Part shown: piece by piece, positions 2,830-41,172 of the stretch
How the letters are laid out: every line of letters begins with the position of its first letter
Position numbering within the stretch: position 1 is the first letter of the stretch
Source of the DNA: a virus
Length of the DNA: 41,698 bases
Virus record (IMG/VR): IMGVR_UViG_3300045988_115336
Coordinates: 1 to 41,698 of that record
Strand: one strand, 5' to 3'
Position numbers and translations under genes: made by a program
The notes under the pieces: model-generated
The model's input: the letters and a program-made list of their open reading frames with translations, nothing else
The model's database searches: none
Told to the model about the DNA's origin: nothing

Positions 2830-3389
2830 TGGCAACAGAGGTAACACTTAACCAACATGCACTTTCAGATGTGGCATGTGTAGAAATAGTTACAGAAGAT
2901 GAAAAAAGTTATACATTTGAAACTGCTTCAGAAGTAGGGATAGAAGAAGTGCTAGACGAAGGCGATGAACAAACTTTAAAAATAAAAAATGTATTATATG
3001 CGAATAGAAAAGCAGAAGATACATTATTAGGACACGATTTAACATTTACAGATAATCTTATGTGTCCTGAATTATTGGAGTTATTCCAAGGTGGTACGTT
3101 GACACCAGGGGAAGGTGGTAAATTCACATATACACCTCCAGCAATAGGGACAAAAGCAACTAAAAAGAAATTTACATGCAATATATATACTTGCGAAGTA
3201 TCAACAGATGGAGATACTGGAAAATATATAAAAGTATCTTATCCAAGTTGTGAGGGAACTAGCGTACCTTTTACGTTTAAAGATGGGGAATATTACACTA
3301 ATGAATATGTAATAAAATCTAGACCAGCTAAAAATGCAGCGCCTTATACAGCTTCTTTAGTAGATGCATTACCGACAACTGCTGTATAA
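2829..3389 (+). CDS. Major tail protein
   Basis: 186 aa. It lies immediately before the chaperone pair and tape measure, and is followed by an attenuator-type hairpin. Confidence 0.65.
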   Translation: MATEVTLNQHALSDVACVEIVTEDEKSYTFETASEVGIEEVLDEGDEQTLKIKNVLYANRKAEDTLLGHDLTFTDNLMCPELLELFQGGTLTPGEGGKFTYTPPAIGTKATKKKFTCNIYTCEVSTDGDTGKYIKVSYPSCEGTSVPFTFKDGEYYTNEYVIKSRPAKNAAPYTASLVDALPTTAV

Positions 3390-4152: not shown

Positions 4153-4938
4153 ATGAGAGAAATTTGGAAAAATATAAAAGGGTACGAAGGAAAATATATG
4201 GTAAGTACAGATGGAAGAGTGAAAAGTATCAATTATAAAAATTCAAGTAGCCCTAACATATTAAAACAAGGCTTAGATAAATATGGATATAAACAATTAA
4301 CTCTTTATTCAAATGGGAGTAAGAAAACATTTAAAGTACATAGACTAGTAGCAGAAACATTTTTAGAAAATCCTAAAAATTTACCTCAAATTAATCATAA
4401 AGATGAAAACAAACAAAATAACAAAGTAGAAAATTTAGAATTTTGCTCAGCTTCATACAATATAAATTATGGAACTAGAAATAAAAAAACATCGGAAAAG
4501 TTAAAAGTAATAAGAAAAACTACAAGCCCTGTAAGTGGAGAAAATAATCCTATGTATGGCAAGCATCATACAGATGAGACCAAAAGGAAAATAAGTGAAG
4601 CACGCAAGGGTAAATACGCAGGGAAAAACAACCCTATGTATGGCAAACATAGGAGTGATGAAGTTAAAGAAAAACTCAGTAAAGCAAATAAAGGCAAGAA
4701 ATTACCAAAAGAAACTAAAAAGAAAATAAGCGAAGCTAATAAAGGGGAAAAACATCCTCAAGCTAAAAAAGTTATCTGCATAACAACAGGAGAAATATTT
4801 AATTATATAAAAGAGGCAACACAAAAATATAATATAGATAATTCAAGTATTACAAAATGCTGTAAAGGGAAAAGAAAATCAAGTGGCAAACATCCTATAA
4901 CAGGTGAAAAACTTGAATGGGGTTATTATGTTGAATAA
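4153..4938 (+). CDS. Free-standing HNH homing endonuclease (NUMOD4-like N-terminus, HNH_3-like core, repeated NUMOD-type helices)
   Basis: WKNIKGYEGKYMVSTDGRV, HRLVAETF...INHKDENKQNN, and repeats of GxNNPMYGKH..E.K.K.S. It has an AGGAGG RBS. Confidence 0.8.
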   Translation: MREIWKNIKGYEGKYMVSTDGRVKSINYKNSSSPNILKQGLDKYGYKQLTLYSNGSKKTFKVHRLVAETFLENPKNLPQINHKDENKQNNKVENLEFCSASYNINYGTRNKKTSEKLKVIRKTTSPVSGENNPMYGKHHTDETKRKISEARKGKYAGKNNPMYGKHRSDEVKEKLSKANKGKKLPKETKKKISEANKGEKHPQAKKVICITTGEIFNYIKEATQKYNIDNSSITKCCKGKRKSSGKHPITGEKLEWGYYVE

Positions 4939-5018: not shown

Positions 5019-5063
5019 ATGAGTGTAAATTTAGGTACAGCTATAGGATATCTCTCGAGCTAG
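5019..5063 (+). CDS. Tape measure N-terminal segment in a different frame (14 codons, then TAG)
   Basis: Strong RBS (GGGGAGGTGA, with GGAGG 7 nt upstream of the ATG). It encodes MSVNLGTAIGYL, a typical tape measure N-terminus. The continuation ELDSSRW is in the frame reached by a net +2/-1 shift at CUCUC 5052-5056. Confidence 0.5.
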   Translation: MSVNLGTAIGYLSS

Positions 5064-5107
5064 ATTCTAGCAGATGGACTAATAGTTATACTACAGCTAG
5101 ACAACAA

Positions 5108-5368
5108 ATGCAAACATTAGCTGACAGTTCGCAAAGTATGGGGAGTAGGTTTCAAGCTGCAGGTTCTATGCTTACAAGTGCGGGTTCTACATTAACCACA
5201 CATGTAACATTACCATTAGTCGGCATTGGGGCTGCTTCGGTAAAAACTGCTGCTGATTTTGAAAGTAGTATGAGTAATGTACAGGCTTTATCTGGTGCAA
5301 CTGGGGGAGAATTACAACAATTATCTGATTTAGCAAAAGAAATGGGAGCAAGTACACAATTTAGTGCT
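5108..5368 (+). CDS. Tape measure protein, exon 1 (frame open from 5000; first ATG at 5108 has no RBS)
   Basis: It encodes ...KEMGASTQFSA, the conserved tape measure core. The frame then reads into the intron and stops at 5387-5389. Confidence 0.8.
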
Positions 5369-5568
5369 AAAAAAAGATTGGCACACTAAATAGAAATATT
5401 TAGAAAAAATAAGCGAGCAATATCGGTAAAACACGTAACTGATTATTAAAATATGATATAATATAGTTAGGGATAGTTAAGGAAGTCGCGAGCCTTAATG
5501 AAAAGAAAGTTATCCGAGCTTTCTTCCCTGTTGATTAATCGGATGGATACTATCGGAGGTGTTTAAAA

Positions 5569-6402
5569 ATGAATTATAAAATTTGTTCAAAATGTAAAGA
5601 ATTAAAACCTTTAGATGCTTTTGAAAAAAGTAATTCTTGTAAAGATGGGCATAGAGGAACTTGTAAACAATGTAGACAAGAACAAAAAAATAAAAAACAT
5701 CAATTACAGTGTGAAGTATGTGGGGAAAAATTTACAAGTTCTAGAAAAGAAGCTAAATATTGCAGTGAAAAATGCCAACATTTAGCACGTAGAAATAGAG
5801 TAAAAGTGAAATGTTCATATTGTGGGAAAGAGCTAGAAGTTATAAAGTCAAAAGCAGACAGTCAAGAATATTTTTATTGTAATCAACAATGTAGAACAGA
5901 ACATTTAAAAACAATAATGAAAGGTACAAATAATCCTAACTTCAACAAAGTAAAATATAATTGTGATGGATGCAATAAAGAAATTTATATAAATCCTTAT
6001 AAAATAAAATCTCAAAAACATATATTTTGTTCTGAGGAATGTTACATAAAAAATATAGGTAAATTTTACAAAGGTGAAAATAATTCTAATTGGAATAAAA
6101 ATCTAACCTCAGAAGAAAGAGAATTAAAAAGAAGATATCCTAAATATTATGAATGGAGAAACAAAGTGTATGAGAGAGATAATTACACTTGCCAAATTTG
6201 TGGAAGTAGTAAGAGTGGAACATTAATAGCGCATCATTTAAATGGATATAACTGGGATATAGAGCATAGGACAGATATTGATAATGGAATAACTTTATGT
6301 ACTAGATGCCATAATGAATTTCATAATAAATTTGGATGCGGGAATAATACAAAAGAACAATTTGAACAATTTTTAAATATTAAATTACAAGTGTCTTTAT
6401 AA
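5569..6402 (+). CDS. Intron-encoded HNH endonuclease with N-terminal Cys4 zinc-ribbon-like modules
   Basis: GGAGGTG RBS. Repeated CxxC...CxxxC modules and a C-terminal HNH motif (CQICG...HHLNGY...NGITLC..CH). Confidence 0.85.
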   Translation: MNYKICSKCKELKPLDAFEKSNSCKDGHRGTCKQCRQEQKNKKHQLQCEVCGEKFTSSRKEAKYCSEKCQHLARRNRVKVKCSYCGKELEVIKSKADSQEYFYCNQQCRTEHLKTIMKGTNNPNFNKVKYNCDGCNKEIYINPYKIKSQKHIFCSEECYIKNIGKFYKGENNSNWNKNLTSEERELKRRYPKYYEWRNKVYERDNYTCQICGSSKSGTLIAHHLNGYNWDIEHRTDIDNGITLCTRCHNEFHNKFGCGNNTKEQFEQFLNIKLQVSL

Positions 6403-6414
6403 GACACTTTTTTT
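6391..6414 (+). terminator. Terminator-like hairpin at the end of the intron ORF
   Basis: GTGTCTT tat AAGACAC followed by TTTTTTT, overlapping the HNH stop codon. Confidence 0.45.
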
Positions 6415-6645
6415 ATACAAATAATCAGATGTCAATACCGAGATAACTTTATAGATTGCGAAAGGCTATAAAGTATCGTAGAGCGTAGATAGTGAATAAA
6501 TATAATCTATCCAAGAGTGTTCGCCACCTTACCATTAAGTTGAAGGTGAAAATGTACGCCAAACTGGGTTTGAAATGACAAACCGATGAAAATGAGGGAA
6601 ACCTCCAGAGGTTAGGATAAAAAGCCTAACGATAATAACGATTTG

Positions 6646-6783
6646 AGTCAATGTGCAGATGCTCTTAGCTACATGGCATTAGCTGGTTGGGACACTCAAC
6701 AATCAATGGATGCACTTCCAGGGGTATTAAACCTTGCTGCTGCATCGGGTATGGATTTAGCAAATGCCAGCGACGCGGTGACT
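6646..6783 (+). CDS. Tape measure protein, exon 2 (46 codons)
   Basis: An open 138-nt frame encodes SQCADALSYMALAGWDTQQSMDALPGVLNLAAASGMDLANASDAVT, a conserved tape measure core. It has no start codon. Confidence 0.8.
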
Positions 6784-7208
6784 AAAAAATATTGGTCGGT
6801 TACTTGGAAACAAGTAGCATAAAGCATCGAGGAAAAACGGGGAAGGTTAAACTTTGTTTAAAGATATCGTTACCCTTGAAAATACTAATTATATATCAAA
6901 TTAAGGAATTTTTAAACAAGCAAATTAATCCCGTGACAAACTAAGAAATTAAAAAATCTTAGTCGTTGTAGAGCGTAGGTATTGAACCTATGCTTTTTAT
7001 TTTTAAAAAGTGTAGAATATAATATACCCACGAGTCCTCGACACGATTATATATAGGATAATCTGAAAACCTAACGTAAAACGAGGGTGAAAAGGTACGC
7101 CAAACTAGGTATGAAATGACATACCGATGAGATAAGGAATTGCACAACTTATCAAATGAGGGAAACTTCTAGAGGTTGAGATAAAAAGCTCAACGTTAAT
7201 AACAAATG
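6784..7208 (+). mobile_element. Group-I-type intron TMP-i2 (425 nt, ORF-less)
   Basis: The 5' splice site follows U6783, and UGACU pairs with GGUCG at 6794-6798. The intron ends ...TAATAACAAATG. Joining the exons gives SDAVT|DILSAFG. Its core is homologous to TMP-i1 and MCP-i2. Confidence 0.8.
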
Positions 7209-9953
7209 GATATTTTAAGTGCATTTGGGATGCAAGCAAGTGATGCAGGAATGGCAGCAGACCAATTTGCATATGCACAAGCTAACGCAAATACAAGTGC
7301 AGACCAATTAACAGAAGCGATGGCTAACTGTGGTGTTAATGCTAATGGATTTGGACAAGATTTAACACAAACGAATGCAGTATTGATGGCCTTATCTAAT
7401 GAAATGCTAAAAGGTGCACCAGCTGGTACAGCATTATCTGCGGTATTTAGAGATATGGGTAATGCAATGGAAAATGGTTCTATTCAAATAGGCAAGACAA
7501 AAGTAAAGATTACTGATGCCAATGGGGACTTCCTAGATATGACAGATATCTTAAAAGGAGTAGAAGAAGCTACAGACGGCATGAGTGAATCAGAGCGACA
7601 AGCTGCTCTATCTTCTACTTTTACAGCAGATAGTATAAAAGCTATGGGAATACTTTTAAATGAAGGTAGTGACAAAGTTGCTGGATATGCAGATCAACTA
7701 GAAAATTGTGGTGGTAGTGCTGAAAAAATGGCCGAAGTTATGAATGATAACCTTAATGGTCAAATAACTGCATTAAAATCAGCTTTAGAAGGTGCTGCAA
7801 TATCTATTGGTGAAGCATTATTGCCAATGATAAAAGGATTAGTAAGTGTGTTACAAGGCGCTTTAACTTGGTTTAATGGACTTAATAGCGGTGTTAAAAC
7901 AACTATAGTCACAGTAGGATTAGTAGTTGCAGCTATAGGGCCATTATTATTAATTCTAGGCTCTTTAGCAAGTGCAATAGGAAACTTAATAGAGCTGAGG
8001 GCATTGATGACTGAGTCTAGTGTGTTAAGTAGTGCGATAAGTAGAGTATCAGGACTATTTACTAGTTTAAGAAATGTGATTATAGGTTCGGTAATACCGG
8101 CTATACAATCATTATGGGCATTTATGCTAGCTAATCCAATAACTATAGTAATAGCAGCAATAGCAGCATTAGTTGCTGGATTTATATATCTTTGGAATAA
8201 CTGTGAAAGTTTTAGAAATTTCTGGCTTAATCTATGGGATAACATAGTTGAAGCAGTTGGCAAAGCTCCAGCAAGTGTTCAAGCTGCTTTTAATTCTATT
8301 ATGAATGTATTTAATGGAATAAAAACTTTTTTGGGTGACTTAGTTGGTGGAATAAAAACATTACTAGGAGACCTATTTAGTGGCAACTTCGGTAAATTAT
8401 CAGAAGATGTTCAAAAGCTAGGGAAACAATTACAAAAAGATTTTCAAAATATAATAGTGAGTTTAAGAAAATCTTTATTAGATGGAACAAATGCATTGAA
8501 AGATGCTTTTAGTAACGGATTAGCAACATTATTAGATCCTATAATAAATTGGGGTTATAGTGTTAATGGTTATTTTGGCGATGCTTTTACAGATTTATAC
8601 GGAACAATAGAAGATACTTTCAGTTTGATAGTAGACTATATAAGAGATTCAATATCTATTATGATTAGTATTTTTACTGGAGACTGGCAAGGGGCTTTGC
8701 AAGGTGTACAAAACTTATTTTCTAATTTAGGCAATAATATAATGACTATACTATCAGATTTATGGAACTTTATATCAGAAATATTTATGGGTATAGGACA
8801 AGTAATAGTCGATAAATTGTCTGAAGTAGGAACTAATATATCAAATTGGTTTACAAATACTTATAATTCATTTATACAATGGTGTACAAACCTTATAACA
8901 GGTATAGGACAATGGTTTAATGAATTGCCTTCTAGAATAGGATATGCATTAGGTTTAGCACTTGGAACAATAACAAGTTGGGTAGTAAATACATATAATT
9001 ATTTTGCAACTAATATACCACTTTGGATAGAGTCTATAGGACAATGGTTCTCTCAGTTGCCTTCTAGAATAGGTCAATGGCTAACAAATACATACAACAA
9101 TGTAGTTAGCTGGGGAAGTAACATGTTATCAAAAGCACAAGAGACTGGCTCAAATTTTGTTAATAATATGATTAGTTTTATACAAAATTTACCGAGCAAT
9201 GTAGCAAGCTGGTTATCTCAAACTTATAACAAAGCAGTTAACTGGGCTTCACAAATGGCATCAAAAGCACGTGAAGCTGGCTCAAACTTTATAAAAAATG
9301 TTATAAGTGCAATACAAAACTTGCCAAGTAAAGTATGGAGTTTATTGTCTCAAGCAATAAGTAAAGCTGCTAATTTTGTATCTCAATTCGGTCAAAAAGC
9401 TACTCAAGCTGGTAGAACATTTACAACAAATATAGTAAATGGAGTTAAGAGCATTCCAAGTAAAATGGTAAGTATAGGTAGCAATATAGTAAAAGGTATA
9501 TGGTCAGGTATTAGTGGGGCTGGAAGTTGGTTAAGAAGTCAAATTAGTAACTTTGCAAGTAATATTGTAAAAGGATTTAAATCCTCATTCAAAATTAACT
9601 CACCTTCTAAGATAATGAGAGATATAATCGGTAAAGGTATTGTAGAAGGTATAGGAGTTGGTATAGACAACGAAGAAGATAGTTTATTGACAAAAGCAGA
9701 TAAACTAGCAGGTAATGTAGTTGACACAATGAATGGTAATATTGCTACTACAAATTTATTTGACACTGCTAAGAGCTTAACAGATAGTATGGCGATAGCT
9801 AATCAAACTAATAGTAGTCAAGAAAATAACACAAATAGATTTGCTAGCTTATTACATATAGAAAACTTAACTATAAACGATGATAAGGACATAGAAACTC
9901 TAGCGAATGATTTAGCGTTTTATTTAAAAAGAAAAAACGTATTAACAGTATAA
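7209..9953 (+). CDS. Tape measure protein, exon 3
   Basis: 914 codons: DILSAFGMQASDA..., a hydrophobic central segment and long repeat-rich helices. The annotated ATG at 7206 lies inside the intron 3' end and has no RBS. Confidence 0.85.
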   Translation, partial: DILSAFGMQASDAGMAADQFAYAQANANTSADQLTEAMANCGVNANGFGQDLTQTNAVLMALSNEMLKGAPAGTALSAVFRDMGNAMENGSIQIGKTKVKITDANGDFLDMTDILKGVEEATDGMSESERQAALSSTFTADSIKAMGILLNEGSDKVAGYADQLENCGGSAEKMAEVMNDNLNGQITALKSALEGAAISIGEALLPMIKGLVSVLQGALTWFNGLNSGVKTTIVTVGLVVAAIGPLLLILGSLASAIGNLIELRALMTESSVLSSAISRVSGLFTSLRNVIIGSVIPAIQSLWAFMLANPITIVIAAIAALVAGFIYLWNNCESFRNFWLNLWDNIVEAVGKAPASVQAAFNSIMNVFNGIKTFLGDLVGGIKTLLGDLFSGNFGKLSEDVQKLGKQLQKDFQNIIVSLRKSLLDGTNALKDAFSNGLATLLDPIINWGYSVNGYFGDAFTDLYGTIEDTFSLIVDYIRDSISIMISIFTGDWQGALQGVQNLFSNLGNNIMTILSDLWNFISEIFMGIGQVIVDKLSEVGTNISNWFTNTYNSFIQWCTNLITGIGQWFNELPSRIGYALGLALGTITSWVVNTYNYFATNIPLWIESIGQWFSQLPSRIGQWLTNTYNNVVSWGSNMLSKAQETGSNFVNNMISFIQNLPSNVASWLSQTYNKAVNWASQMASKAREAGSNFIKNVISAIQNLPSKVWSLLSQAISKAANFVSQFGQKATQAGRTFTTNIVNGVKSIPSKMVSIGSNIVKGIWSGISGAGSWLRSQISNFASNIVKGFKSSFKINSPSKIMRDIIGKGIVEGIGVGIDNEEDSLLTKADKLAGNVVDTMNGNIATTNLFDTAKSLTDSMAIANQTNSSQENNTNRFASLLHIENLTINDDKDIETLANDLAFYLKRKNVLTV

Positions 9954-9965
9954 GGGGGTGTAGAA

Positions 9966-10724
9966 ATGGAATTTATAGAATACAGAGATCCAATAGTTTT
10001 ATATTTGGACGACAAACCTAGTACAGATTACGGAATAAAGGTGTATGAAAGTAATATCCTTTCTGCACCATCTAAAAAGTTAGAGTTTGTTGAAATAGAA
10101 GGAAGAGACGGAGCGTTAACAGTAGACAATGGATATGAAGATTTTATATTAAAATTAAGTTGTGTACTTGTAAACGAGCATGACGAGATTGAAACTACTC
10201 CAGCATTAGCAAGAAGAGCAAAGAAATTTCTTCTTAACGGAACAAATAGAAAAATACAATTAAGCGAGGATATGGATTACTATCTGTTAGGGACTTACAA
10301 TTCTGATATTGACATAGAAGAAGCAATTGAAAACTTTGGATTGTTTCAGGCACAATTTAGATGTAAACCTTATAGATTTTCAAATAAAAGCAAAACAGTA
10401 GAAATAATTACTAAAAATACTATAATAAAAAATGATGAATATAAAACTAAACCTGTTATCGATGTGTATGCAACAGGAGATATAACTCTTAATATAAATA
10501 ATCAAGAAGTGATTTTAAAAGCCTTAGAAGGGCATATACAACTTGATTGTGATTTAATGAATGCAACTACTGTTAATTCGCTTGGAAAAACAGTAAATGC
10601 AAATCATAAAATGTATAGTGATTTTCCAATATTAGAAGAAGGTAATAATAATATAACTTGGTCCTTAGGAAGTGGAGCAAGTTTTACTAAAATAAAAATA
10701 GATTATAGAATGGCGGTGATATAG
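9966..10724 (+). CDS. Distal tail protein (Dit-like)
   Basis: 252 aa, directly after the tape measure; GGGGGTG RBS; synteny. Confidence 0.65.
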   Translation: MEFIEYRDPIVLYLDDKPSTDYGIKVYESNILSAPSKKLEFVEIEGRDGALTVDNGYEDFILKLSCVLVNEHDEIETTPALARRAKKFLLNGTNRKIQLSEDMDYYLLGTYNSDIDIEEAIENFGLFQAQFRCKPYRFSNKSKTVEIITKNTIIKNDEYKTKPVIDVYATGDITLNINNQEVILKALEGHIQLDCDLMNATTVNSLGKTVNANHKMYSDFPILEEGNNNITWSLGSGASFTKIKIDYRMAVI

Positions 10725-13700
10725 TGATACCAAGAATTTATGATAATAGTTTTACAACGTATGAAAGCAATGGATTAGGTTTATTGGTAGATACTATATC
10801 TTGCCAAGTTGAAGAAGAATCAAACGGGGATTTTGAGTTAACACTTGTATATCCTTCCGATGGTTCTTTTTTTTATGCATTAAAACAAGATAATCTTATA
10901 AAAGCTGATGCATCTGACAGTCTAAAAGGGCAACTTTTTAGGATAGATACTATAAGCAAACCTTTAAATGGGCAAGTAACAGTATATGCAAAACATATTT
11001 CATTTGATTTAGCTAAAAACTCTTTAAACGAAGATATAAACGAAAGGAATATAAATTGTGAAAATGCTGGTAAGCATATGCTTCAAAAATCTGATGCTGA
11101 CAGTAGATTTTCTATTGAAAGTAACATAGAAATGCTGGGTAACTATAGCATGGATAGAAAAACAGATTGTTTATCTGCTATAGCTGGAACAAGAGGTTCT
11201 CTTATAGATACATTTGGTAATGGGCCTAAGCTTCTTAGAGATAACTTTACAATATCCGTACTTAATAGAAGGGGTAAAGATGATAACACTCTTATAGCTT
11301 ATAAGAAGAATATTACAGGATTTACATTAGAAGAGGATTACTCAGAAATAATTAATGTTATAAAACCTTATGCAACAGTTACAGATGAAGAGGGTAACGA
11401 ATCTCCTATATACATTGACGAAATAGGAGTAAAATCATCTAGATATGTAGAAGGCGATATAGTAAAAAGTCAATGGATAGATTTTTCTGATAAATTTGAT
11501 GAAGATGAAACTCCAACAAAAGAAAAATTAAAGAATCTAGCTGAAAAATATTTCAACGATAATAGCTGTGACCTTCCTAAAATGACTTATAAAATAGAAT
11601 TTCAACCACTTAGTCAAACTGAAGAATATAAGGAAGATGGATTGGATGAGTTGGAGCATATAGGCATGGATGACAGTGTCTATATAGCTAACAGTAAATA
11701 CAAAATAAGAGACCAAGCTAGAGTTATAAAAACAACTTATAACGTATTAGCAGATAAATATATATCTATAGAGTTAGGTGATCCAAAGACAACATTAGGC
11801 TCAATTATAAATAAATCTAATAACGATACTGTAACAAAAGATGAAGTAAAAGAGATTATAAAAAACAATAAAAAAGATTATCCTAATACATTGCCAGCAA
11901 TACCCGTTATAACTATAGATAGAGCTGGATTTAAGACAGTTTCTCTTAGTTGGGAGTATGAGAATAAGCCTTATTATTCTTATGAGGTATATGCAAGCCA
12001 AGAGCAAGGATTTACACCTAATGTTTTCGACTTAATTTTTAAAGGTCAAGCAAGTGCTTTTTTACATGAGGTTGAATGCTCACAAACTTGGTACTACAAA
12101 GTAAGGGCTGTAAATACTTATGGAAATGCTACAGATTTTTCAAAAGAAGTTAGCGCTACAACTTATAAAATCCAAGATGGGACAGAAATATTTGAAAATG
12201 CTGCAATTAAAGAAGCATTAATTGAAAGTTTAAATGCTGACAAAATTACTGCTGGAAAAGTCAAAGGTACTTATATTGATGCTAGAAATCTTACTGTAAC
12301 AGATGGAAACGGAGATACAACATTATCAGTGAGTTCCGATGGGGAAATAAGCATAAAAGAAGGATTAATACAATTAAATCAAGATGGAATAGCAGTAAAC
12401 CACACCAACCAAGAGAATACAGAAATTGCTAAGACAGTAATGGATGAAGAAGGATTTCGTATATTAGATAGAAATGGAAATGAATTAGCAGATATAGGTT
12501 CTCAAGGATCACACTTTGCAAATTTATCTGTAGATGGTGATTTTAGGCACTATCCTACAGCACAAATTATAGACCGCCAACCTAATTGGAACGCAGATTA
12601 TTATGTGGCAAAAATTGCAACTGGAGATGGCACAGGCAGGAATGAAGAAAACAAAGCAGACAGTCTACAAACTGTATTTGGATATATGAAATCTCAAGGA
12701 TGTATGTTTTTTAACAAGTTGACTATAAATATAGAGGCAGGTGTTAGAATAAGAGAAAAGATAGTCCTTAGAGACTTTCACGGAACACTTATGCAAATAA
12801 GTTTAGGCAAAGATGCCGTACTAAGACTTAAAGAGGGAAGTGCTATAGAAGATAATTATTGTAGAATACAATTCTACGGAGATACAAATACAAATATACT
12901 AGACGATGATACAACATCTGAAAAAATAAACAAGTTACCATGCATAGAAGTGGAGGGTAATAATGGAATAAGACTTGCAAGTAGTTCTTATGTTCAATTT
13001 GGTTGGATGAGACTAAGAGGAAAAGATAATAACAGCTATTTTGCAAATTTATACACAGGAGCTAATTTACATGTGGTATCCTGTGATATTTCAAATGTAA
13101 AAGCTCCAGCGTATGTAGACTCTACATCTAGGTTTACAATATCTTATTGTAGAGGGAATGTAGAAAAATTAGCTTATGCAGTAGGTGGAGCTATGATATC
13201 GAAATCAGTTCAGGTTCCAAAACATATAAATGATAGTGAAATATATTATCCGGCAGTTGACCTATCTGGTGGGTTAGCAGGGCAACTTATACAATATGAC
13301 ACTCTGTTCCAAGATACATACAGTAATGATACTGATACAAATACAATGAGAATCTTTCCTGCAATTAAACAATATACAGAAAGAGAAGGAGAAGGAACAG
13401 ATGACACGGCTAATCTTCTTAATCTTGTAGGACAAGGAAAGTTCAGCGAAGAATACAAATCTCTACATGGCTACGCAATATTTGCAGAAATGGTTAGCAA
13501 AGATACTATAAAAGCTGATACACTTCCCGAATTTGCTGAATCTAGAGAAAGTTATAAAATTTATATTAGAATGACGAGAGCTGATAATAATACTACTGCT
13601 CCAATACCAAGAGCTCGATTCCAACTAGAAAATGGTGAATATACTGCTTTCTATAAATTAGACCCATTAACAAGTCCAATAAATGGAGATGGTTCGGGAC

Positions 13701-40734: not shown

Positions 40735-40894
40735 ATGTCAACAACAAAAATTGCAGATTTAATAAATCCAGAAGTAATGGCAGATATGATTTCAGCCAAA
40801 ATAGAAAAAAAATTAGTGGTTACACCATTTGCTAAAATAGATACTACATTAGTAGGGCAACCAGGAAATACTATAACAGTTCCACAATATGCGT
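40735..40894 (+). CDS. Major capsid protein, exon 1
   Basis: AGGAAGGTGA RBS. It encodes MSTTKIADLINPEVMADMI...GQPGNTITVPQYA, a conserved capsid N-terminus, and the frame hits TAA right after this point. Confidence 0.85.
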
Positions 40895-41172
40895 AAAAAT
40901 ATGCGCCTTTACATAGTGATATGTATTGCAAACCCTTTTAATTGCTGGAAACTCCTAAAGAGTTCATCTCACTTTAGGACAATCAGCAGCGAAGATTCAT
41001 TAAATATATATTTAATGAATAACGTTCAACGACTAGCCGAAAGGCGTACACCCAAGTGGGTGGAAATGGAGGGCAACTCAAGGAGTTGATGATATAGTCT
41101 AATCTATATAGTAATATATAGCAGTTCATAAGAGAACGATACAAGATTAACGACCTTGTATGAATGTAAATG
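40895..41172 (+). mobile_element. Group I intron MCP-i1 (278 nt, ORF-less)
   Basis: GCGU/GCGC forms P1 with a U.G pair. ACGACUA ... AUAGUC forms a P7-like pair. There are several hairpins, GNRA loops and a terminal G. Joining the exons gives PQYA|YIGDAVDVAEG. Confidence 0.85.

Follow-up and report, generated by a model that had tools for sequence, protein, structure and literature searches.

What interrupts the tape measure protein (TMP) gene of a phage at positions 6784–7208 of the 41,698-nt stretch of DNA that we analysed (the window), and does the interruption still allow a single protein to be made? An earlier note, made from the letters alone, had read this segment as an ORF-less intron (TMP-i2, hereafter i2) lying 138 nt downstream of a first one (TMP-i1, hereafter i1). 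Inspection of the sequence revealed a TMP gene on the plus strand that is split into three exons: exon 1 (5019–5368; C-terminal residues ...STQFSA, last base T5368), exon 2 (6646–6783; 138 nt) and exon 3 (7209–9953; DILSAFGMQ... through the stop). Exons 1 and 2 are separated by i1 (5369–6645), a plus-strand group I intron of 1,277 nt with a P1 of GUGCU/GGCAC, a terminal G6645 and an ORF (5569–6402) for a 277-aa HNH endonuclease with a Pfam HNH match, and exons 2 and 3 are separated by i2 (6784–7208), a group I intron of 425 nt on the same strand, in which, as the note had stated, there is no long ORF. The sequence also agrees with its description of exon 2 as a 46-codon island (SQCADAL...ANASDAVT) and of a DILSAFG continuation from 7209. 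A Shine-Dalgarno-like GGAGGTG precedes the TMP start at 5019 and likewise the i1 ORF start at 5569. The spliced TMP protein gave a single PhageMin_Tail match in Pfam (residues 103–301), which runs across both junctions (117/118 and 163/164) and takes in exon 2 entirely, and it aligned as one tblastn piece to tape measure proteins in 740 phage records with at least 80% coverage. For annotation, the full tape measure product would be exons 1, 2 and 3 joined together.

The boundaries of i2 could be read directly from sister phages. Two IMG/VR scans, one for a conserved intron motif and one for the back-translated sequence of the spliced junction, brought up three phages closely related to that of the window (L011, L013 and L014). 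L014, a 34-kb contig that is 91–98.5% identical to the window, lacks both i1 and i2; since it aligns gap-free to window positions 5019–5369, 6646–6783 and 7209–11059, with exon 2 contiguous with exons 1 and 3, the junctions 5368/6646 and 6783/7209 are exact. L013 also lacks i2 and joins 6783 to 7209, and in both of these intron-less alleles the host frame is restored at the DNA level on i2 removal. The third relative, L011 (a 40.6-kb contig, 95–99.6% identical to the window), has i2 at the same site and lacks i1, with 5368 and 6646 joined exactly; L011 and L014 come from one metagenome, IMG 3300045988. The search of related phages for intron-minus alleles that had been proposed as a check therefore found two of them, and i2 stands as an intron with the boundaries first assigned to it. 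At its 3' end i2 reads ...TAATAACAAATG, and its last base, as previously recognised, is G7208, the terminal G (omega G) of the 3' splice site on the plus strand, which is also the last base of a spurious ATG at 7206–7208. This ATG is preceded by AGCTCAACGTTAATAACAA, where we saw no Shine-Dalgarno-like run, and at the i2 site the intron-less L014 reads GTGACT/GATATT with no ATG, in agreement with the view that the ATG belongs to the intron 3' end and has no ribosome-binding site. A 915-aa ORF can be called from 7206 only because the intron happens to end in these three bases.

What kind of intron is i2? The Rfam model RF00028 matched a further intron of the window (40885–41121; 112.8 bits, E = 1e-28), but it gave no match in window 5200–7400, which holds i1 and i2, at E up to 10, nor on seven related loci at E up to 0.01; i2 obtained no score and lies below the gathering threshold of 50 bits. 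Because Rfam gave no group I match, we built a covariance model from independent sequences. The retrieval motif GTAGAGCGTAG-N(20–50)-CCANGAGT delivered an intron family of at least 119 viral loci in IMG/VR. When 24 diverse phage members, none from the window, were aligned, RNAalifold recovered P3, P4, P5, P6, P7.1, P8, P9 and P9.1, with compensatory changes in 40 of 51 pairs. The covariance model (R1), which covers the P3-to-P7' core in 156 positions and was trained solely on 24 introns from other phages, leaving the window out, matched i2 over all 156 model positions (6825–7104; 70.6 bits, E = 4.3e-17), the 3' core of i1 (6415–6563; 106 bits, E = 1.5e-26), the intron of L013 (81 bits, E = 7e-20) and a further window intron at 472–658 (53.5 bits, E = 1.5e-12). 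That i1 and i2 are related, as the earlier note had proposed, is borne out by their homologous 3' parts and by their match to the same covariance model. For covariation, 99 distinct sequences of the family were scored, after the P7 pseudoknot had been entered manually. Paired cells amounted to 94.0% compared to 72.0% in shuffles, changes on both sides were present in 37 of 43 pairs, and the covariation score was 0.571 compared to 0.177 for shuffled alignments (reached by none of 500), while slid controls stayed at or below 0.10. P7 was 100% paired with 3 of its 6 pairs compensatory, the retrieval pattern having fixed its 5' strand. In the 3' domain (P9 three-way junction and P9.1), counted on 12 sequences, 100% of cells were paired and 13 pairs were compensatory.

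The i2 region, which folds with a z-score of −5.3, carries the helices of this family in full on the plus strand. The last bases of exon 2, UGACU (6779–6783), pair with the guide GGUCG (6794–6798) to form P1, a pairing that the earlier note had picked out and that we confirmed, with a U6783·G6794 wobble at the 5' splice site; the GGUCG guide is common to i2 and to the same-site intron of another phage locus, L004. P10 is formed by the other half of the guide, AAAAUAUU (6786–6793), and the first 8 nt of exon 3, GAUAUUUU (7209–7216), and it shows a compensating change, in that L004 has G in the exon and C in the guide where the window has A and U. Together P1 and P10 make 13 contiguous bp across the ligated exons, which was reached by 29 of 20,000 shuffles of the intron 5' end. 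P2 (6801–6816) is a hairpin, UACUUG-GAAA-CAAGUA, whose counterpart in L004 is UAUGGA-GAAA-UCUAUA, with four pairs changed yet kept. P3 joins UCGAGGA (6827–6833) to UCCUCGA (7035–7041); all seven of its pairs are changed on both sides in the family, and compensating changes are found here too between i2 and the L004 intron. An alternative P3 (AAAGCAU/AUGCUUU) was dropped, as the family alignment supports UCGAGGA/UCCUCGA. P4 (6837–6842 with 6929–6934; ACGGGG/UCCCGU) encloses P5 and its extension (6845–6926), P5 being weak in i2 as aligned to the model (G·U, G·U, U-A). P6/P6a (6935–6967) consists of outer pairs GAC...GUU and a hairpin ACUAAGA/UCUUAGU, and 11 of 11 family pairs in P6 are compensatory.

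P7, the predicted guanosine-binding helix, forms the pseudoknot with P3 and pairs G[A]GCGUA (6971 and 6973–6977, with bulged A6972) with UACGCC (7096–7101). The order G6971, bulged A6972 and then the pair G6973-C7100 is compatible with a guanosine-binding site, for which a G-C pair beside a bulged nucleotide is expected, and that pair is invariant in 98 of 98 family members; other parts of the helix vary, reading GAGUG/UACUC in L013 and GCAUA/UAUGC in an intron of the window's capsid gene. P7.1 (element 6978–7028) pairs GGUAU (6978–6982) with AUACC (7024–7028), contains an internal 11-bp hairpin (6988–7015) and is compensatory in 5 of 5 pairs across the family, which supports it over the hairpin GCGUAGGU/ACCUAUGC that was considered and dropped. 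P8 (7042–7089) is made of CAC/GUG and CCU/AGG with an inserted hairpin at 7045–7063, as judged by eye against L004, L025, L035 and L112. The P9 region (7105–7194) comprises a three-way junction and P9.1: P9 (7105–7107 with 7170–7172), P9a (7108–7125), a hairpin specific to i2 (7131–7153), a hairpin with a GAAA tetraloop (7158–7169) and the P9.1 hairpin (7175–7194).

The defining features of a group I intron are its topology, the U·G pair at the 5' splice site, the terminal G and the P3/P7 pseudoknot. The group I assignment of i2 rests on topology, covariation, splice-site features and precise absence from the sister alleles, and not on a curated model. A group II intron was ruled out, as we saw no GUGYG 5' end and no domain V-like element, and the terminal G and P1–P10 fit group I. 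Subgroup IA is recognised by extra helices, P7.1 and P7.2 or P7.1a, that stand between P7 and P3' (PMC3984707). P7.1 of i2 lies in that position, and this one element is our basis for calling i2 subgroup IA-like.

The silence of RF00028 on i2 shows a gap in the coverage of that model, and the topology evidence still holds. The P7 of this family is GCGUA/UACGC rather than GACUA/UAGUC, and hence RF00028 finds the intron at 40885–41121 but not i1, i2 or the relatives tested. Since the model is silent at the TMP region and at seven related loci, automated pipelines are likely to overlook such introns and to fragment the host genes. Reading the flanking translations, we placed family members in tape measure genes and also in terminase, capsid and ribonucleotide-reductase-like genes. 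The family core GTAGAGCGTAG...CCAAGAGT...ATGTACGCC had matches in crAss-like, Clostridium perfringens and Staphylococcus phages, and further matches were seen in C. difficile phiCD211-like phages and a cyanophage; the tables of hits list them either in DNA without annotation or under ordinary CDS names. The TMP region of Caldibacillus phage CBP1 (L132, MF595878.1, 23427–26119) is broken up in its annotation into three CDS, two of them called 'TMP repeat containing protein' and one 'hypothetical protein'. By blastn, the intron core matches DNA that lies between these three CDS and reaches into them, which suggests that this published genome has unannotated TMP introns. As for the window phage itself, a blastn search of INPHARED with exon 3 turned up no near relative, and the exact i2-specific pattern found no match in genome contigs. 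A broader intron pattern found 15 bacterial or MAG loci there, which have the intron core alone in common and include no close relative of the window phage, and a literature search found no introns in phiCP39-O.

Did i2 ever carry an endonuclease gene? The copy in L011 is 1,283 nt long, compared to 425 nt in the window, and contains an ORF for a 294-aa HNH protein (L011 2214–3098) that sits in the terminal loop of the P5 extension, its end entering P5', P4' and P6. Over the first 112 and the last 314 nt the two copies are 100% identical, and their sole difference is one 858-bp deletion. On the plus strand the two sides of the deletion meet at 6895, a position that falls in the terminal loop of the P5 extension, and they share 1 nt of microhomology (A6895). 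Although i2 has no intact endonuclease ORF, the last 15 codons remain, QIKEFLNKQINPVTN plus stop (6897–6944, plus strand), overlapping P5', P4' and P6 and homologous to the C-terminus of the i1 endonuclease. From the retained C-terminus and parsimony we infer that the ORF was lost by deletion rather than gained, so that the loss of an endonuclease ORF suggested in the earlier note finds its counterpart in an ORF-bearing sister copy. Since only these 15 codons are left, i2 is unable to mobilise itself in this genome. Judged from this comparison, i2 appears to be a ribozyme that was disarmed recently and is still intact, standing at the step of the homing cycle where the ORF has been lost.

One could instead regard i2 as a decaying remnant that no longer splices, in which case the TMP would be broken, either made as separate fragments with exon 3 starting at ATG 7206 or belonging to a defective phage. 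The missing endonuclease ORF and the 915-aa ORF that ORF callers give from 7206 are in keeping with this idea, as is a lesion in exon 1. There the window has a 2-nt insertion at about 5053–5059 (segment 5053–5063, codons 11–13), reading TATCTCTCGAGCTAG where L011 and L014 both have TATTTAGAGTTAG; it throws the first 13 codons out of frame and gives rise to a TAG at 5061, and beyond the indel exon 1 continues in the −1 frame, where the first in-frame ATG is at 5108. In these two sister phages exon 1 is uninterrupted (MS(L/M)NLG(S/T)AIGYLELDSS...). The indel may be a real frameshift lesion, a repair scar near the adjacent free-standing endonuclease gene (described below) or an error of sequencing or assembly; accordingly, a defective TMP copy in the window and a faulty assembly at this point are both conceivable. 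This matters for whether the TMP copy is functional and is irrelevant to the identity of i2. The intron itself argues against decay: outside the deletion it is identical, base by base, to the ORF-bearing copy of L011, its core helices are all intact, and the deletion lies in a terminal loop, a place that normally tolerates ORFs. Moreover, the ATG at 7206 has no ribosome-binding site and no counterpart in the intron-less allele, and exon 2 has no credible start of its own. We therefore consider a splicing-dead i2 improbable and take i2 to be an intact intron that has lost its endonuclease gene.

How did i2 come to this site? The window and L011 are identical from 6694 to 7246, a tract that spans i2 and reaches into both flanking exons. 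Beyond it, the first 500 nt of exon 3 hold 65 mismatches between the two, so that an intron 100% identical to the L011 copy is set beside an exon 3 that is 87–94% identical, while L011 (intron-plus) and L014 (intron-minus) differ at 1 of 1,400 exon 3 positions. An identical intron inside a diverged gene is the signature of recent homing with short co-conversion tracts, and the identical patch points to an independent lateral homing of i2.

The earlier note had placed the two introns in a scenario of repeated homing or ectopic transposition, followed by loss of the endonuclease ORF in one copy. Taken as a copying of i1 within the TMP gene, by ectopic transposition or reverse splicing, with ORF loss thereafter, this would account for two introns of one family standing 138 nt apart, with a common P9 architecture and with HNH proteins of one family encoded, now or formerly, by both. 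The degree of likeness speaks against it. The cores of i1 and i2 are 63% identical (122 core columns), whereas i1 is 89% identical to the intron of L065 and 82% to that of L002; the nearest relative of i2 in the set is the capsid intron of the window, at 70%. Likewise, the endonuclease of i1 and that of the L011 copy of i2 are 37% identical, and L011 has i2 without i1. Same-site relatives of i2, with 3' exons that start D-G-L-T-A-L-G and a 51%-identical HNH protein, are present in unrelated TMP genes (L004, L009 and L112). We thus hold a derivation of i2 from i1 to be very unlikely; of the scenario, the ORF loss is borne out and the copying from i1 is not. A better account is that i1 and i2 each arrived on its own, as separate site-specific lineages of one large family of phage introns, and that no duplication within the gene took place.

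Neighbouring insertions of this kind are found elsewhere. In L112 (minus strand) twin introns at 2512–2681 and 2879–3102 occupy the i2 site and a second site about 37 codons downstream by our own count, and since this is the TMP gene of an unrelated phage, twin introns with a short exon island recur in TMP genes. L013 (reverse complement, 202–566) carries a third, ORF-less intron of the family 25 nt downstream of the i1 site (ADALG-Y/MALAGW, codon phase 1). Across this clade, some 165 nt of TMP coding sequence hold three or more intron sites.

That the ORF-less state is an artefact of a collapsed or chimeric metagenomic contig is extremely unlikely: the window is apparently a metagenomic contig, L011 and L014 come from IMG 3300045988, and the deletion is perfectly clean with identical flanks, but the 65 mismatches per 500 nt in exon 3 show that the window is a genome of its own rather than L011 reads joined wrongly, and a junction with just 1 nt of microhomology offers no repeat for an assembler to collapse.

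The window holds further introns and a further endonuclease gene. Its first 712 nt contain an intron of the same family in an apparent major capsid gene, cut by the window start, with the 3' end of an HNH ORF that stops at 520, a ribozyme core at 472–658, a predicted terminal G at 712 and a downstream exon that reads ELTDEAVLSGYGNP...; its P7, GCAUA/UAUGC, is compensatory relative to the family consensus. At the other end, the classical group I intron at 40885–41121 follows an ORF (40735–40884) that resembles a major capsid N-terminus (MSTTKIADLINPEV...). If the contig is circular, two introns of two types would lie in the capsid gene, and the genome would carry four or more group I introns. 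A free-standing homing-endonuclease gene (4153–4938; 261 aa; Pfam NUMOD4, HNH_3 and three NUMOD3 motifs) lies within segment 4096–5018, which separates the tail-chaperone region from the TMP start, and exactly this segment is missing from both L011 and L014.

Taken together, we read i2 as a group I, subgroup IA-like intron in the TMP gene that lost its HNH ORF after lateral entry, a reading to which, judging from sequence comparison, we give a probability of about 0.9. Its predicted splicing steps can be derived from its anatomy and from what is established of group I chemistry. Within the intron, the guide AAAAUAUU-GGUCG (6786–6798) would form P1 with the final 5 nt of exon 2 and P10 with the opening 8 nt of exon 3, free guanosine would dock in P7 (G[A]GCGUA/UACGCC) and attack after U6783, and G7208 would then occupy the guanosine site as exon 2 is joined to exon 3. 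This ligation, together with the removal of i1, would restore ...ASDAVT-DILSAFG... in a single tape measure protein. As to its history, the comparison indicates that i2 once had an HNH homing endonuclease gene, set in the loop at the tip of its P5 extension, that it entered this diverged TMP allele laterally as a short identical patch, and that a single deletion after entry took 858 bp of the endonuclease gene.

A tentative extension, which we regard as possible and somewhat doubtful, is that the disarmed i2 is still mobile as a hitch-hiker with i1. A break at the i1 site of an intron-less phage would be repaired from the window allele, and a co-conversion tract of more than 138 nt from i1 would carry i2 along, so that the twin introns would spread as one unit with a single endonuclease as the driver. 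The free-standing HNH/NUMOD endonuclease (4153–4938) just upstream of the TMP gene could be another such driver. If true, hitch-hiking would account for the persistence of ORF-less introns in phage tape measure genes.

ORF-less TMP introns as such have been described from other phages before, and i2 is a thoroughly documented case of them; our findings on i2 leave current knowledge of group I introns unchanged. What the case adds is an unusually clean natural series and an abundant family unseen by RF00028 at the loci tested. The window and its three sister contigs form a natural series at one locus, with a third intron at a neighbouring site, that could be used to study homing in uncultured phages.

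The closest parallel is found in prophages of the Bacillus cereus group, in which group I introns occupy three TMP sites (TMP-IVS1, -IVS2 and -IVS3; Tourasse and Kolsto, 2008; PMC2504315). Two of them are related IA2 introns that differ mainly in P1 and the guide, IA1 introns occupy a third site, some copies have no complete endonuclease gene, and the introns are patchily distributed among related phages (PMC2504315). In common with these, the TMP introns described here are several group I introns of class IA at different sites in a conserved part of the TMP gene, with related introns that differ mainly in the P1/guide region, copies with an incomplete endonuclease, and both intron-plus and intron-minus alleles among related phages. 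The two cases also differ. The window is from a low-GC metagenomic phage of another lineage; i1 and i2 are 63% identical in the core, as against 80% overall for IVS1 and IVS2; and the ORF loss is seen here as a single 858-bp deletion relative to an otherwise identical ORF-bearing copy.

A broader comparison is offered by the phage subgroup IA introns that carry HNH or other homing endonucleases, as in T4 td, nrdB and sunY, the SPO1 DNA polymerase gene, Twort orf142 and the LL-H terminase gene (Hausner et al., 2014; PMC3984707), and phage genes with several group I introns are classical (PMC3984707). Shared with these introns are the U·G pair at the 5' splice site, the terminal G, the P3–P9 core in which P7.1 stands between P7 and P3', the placement of an endonuclease ORF in a peripheral loop, a location in the most conserved stretch of an essential gene and, in some phages, several introns per gene. 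Unlike theirs, the P7 here is GCGUA/UACGC and not GACUA/UAGUC. Finally, the likewise classical homing cycle, in which an intron invades and its endonuclease then degenerates and is lost (Goddard and Burt, 1999, as cited in PMC3984707), has its empty site, its intron with ORF and its intron minus ORF represented at this one locus (L014, L011, L013 and the window). Set against the cycle in the outline given by that citation, i2 shows no difference in kind and provides an unusually clean snapshot of it.
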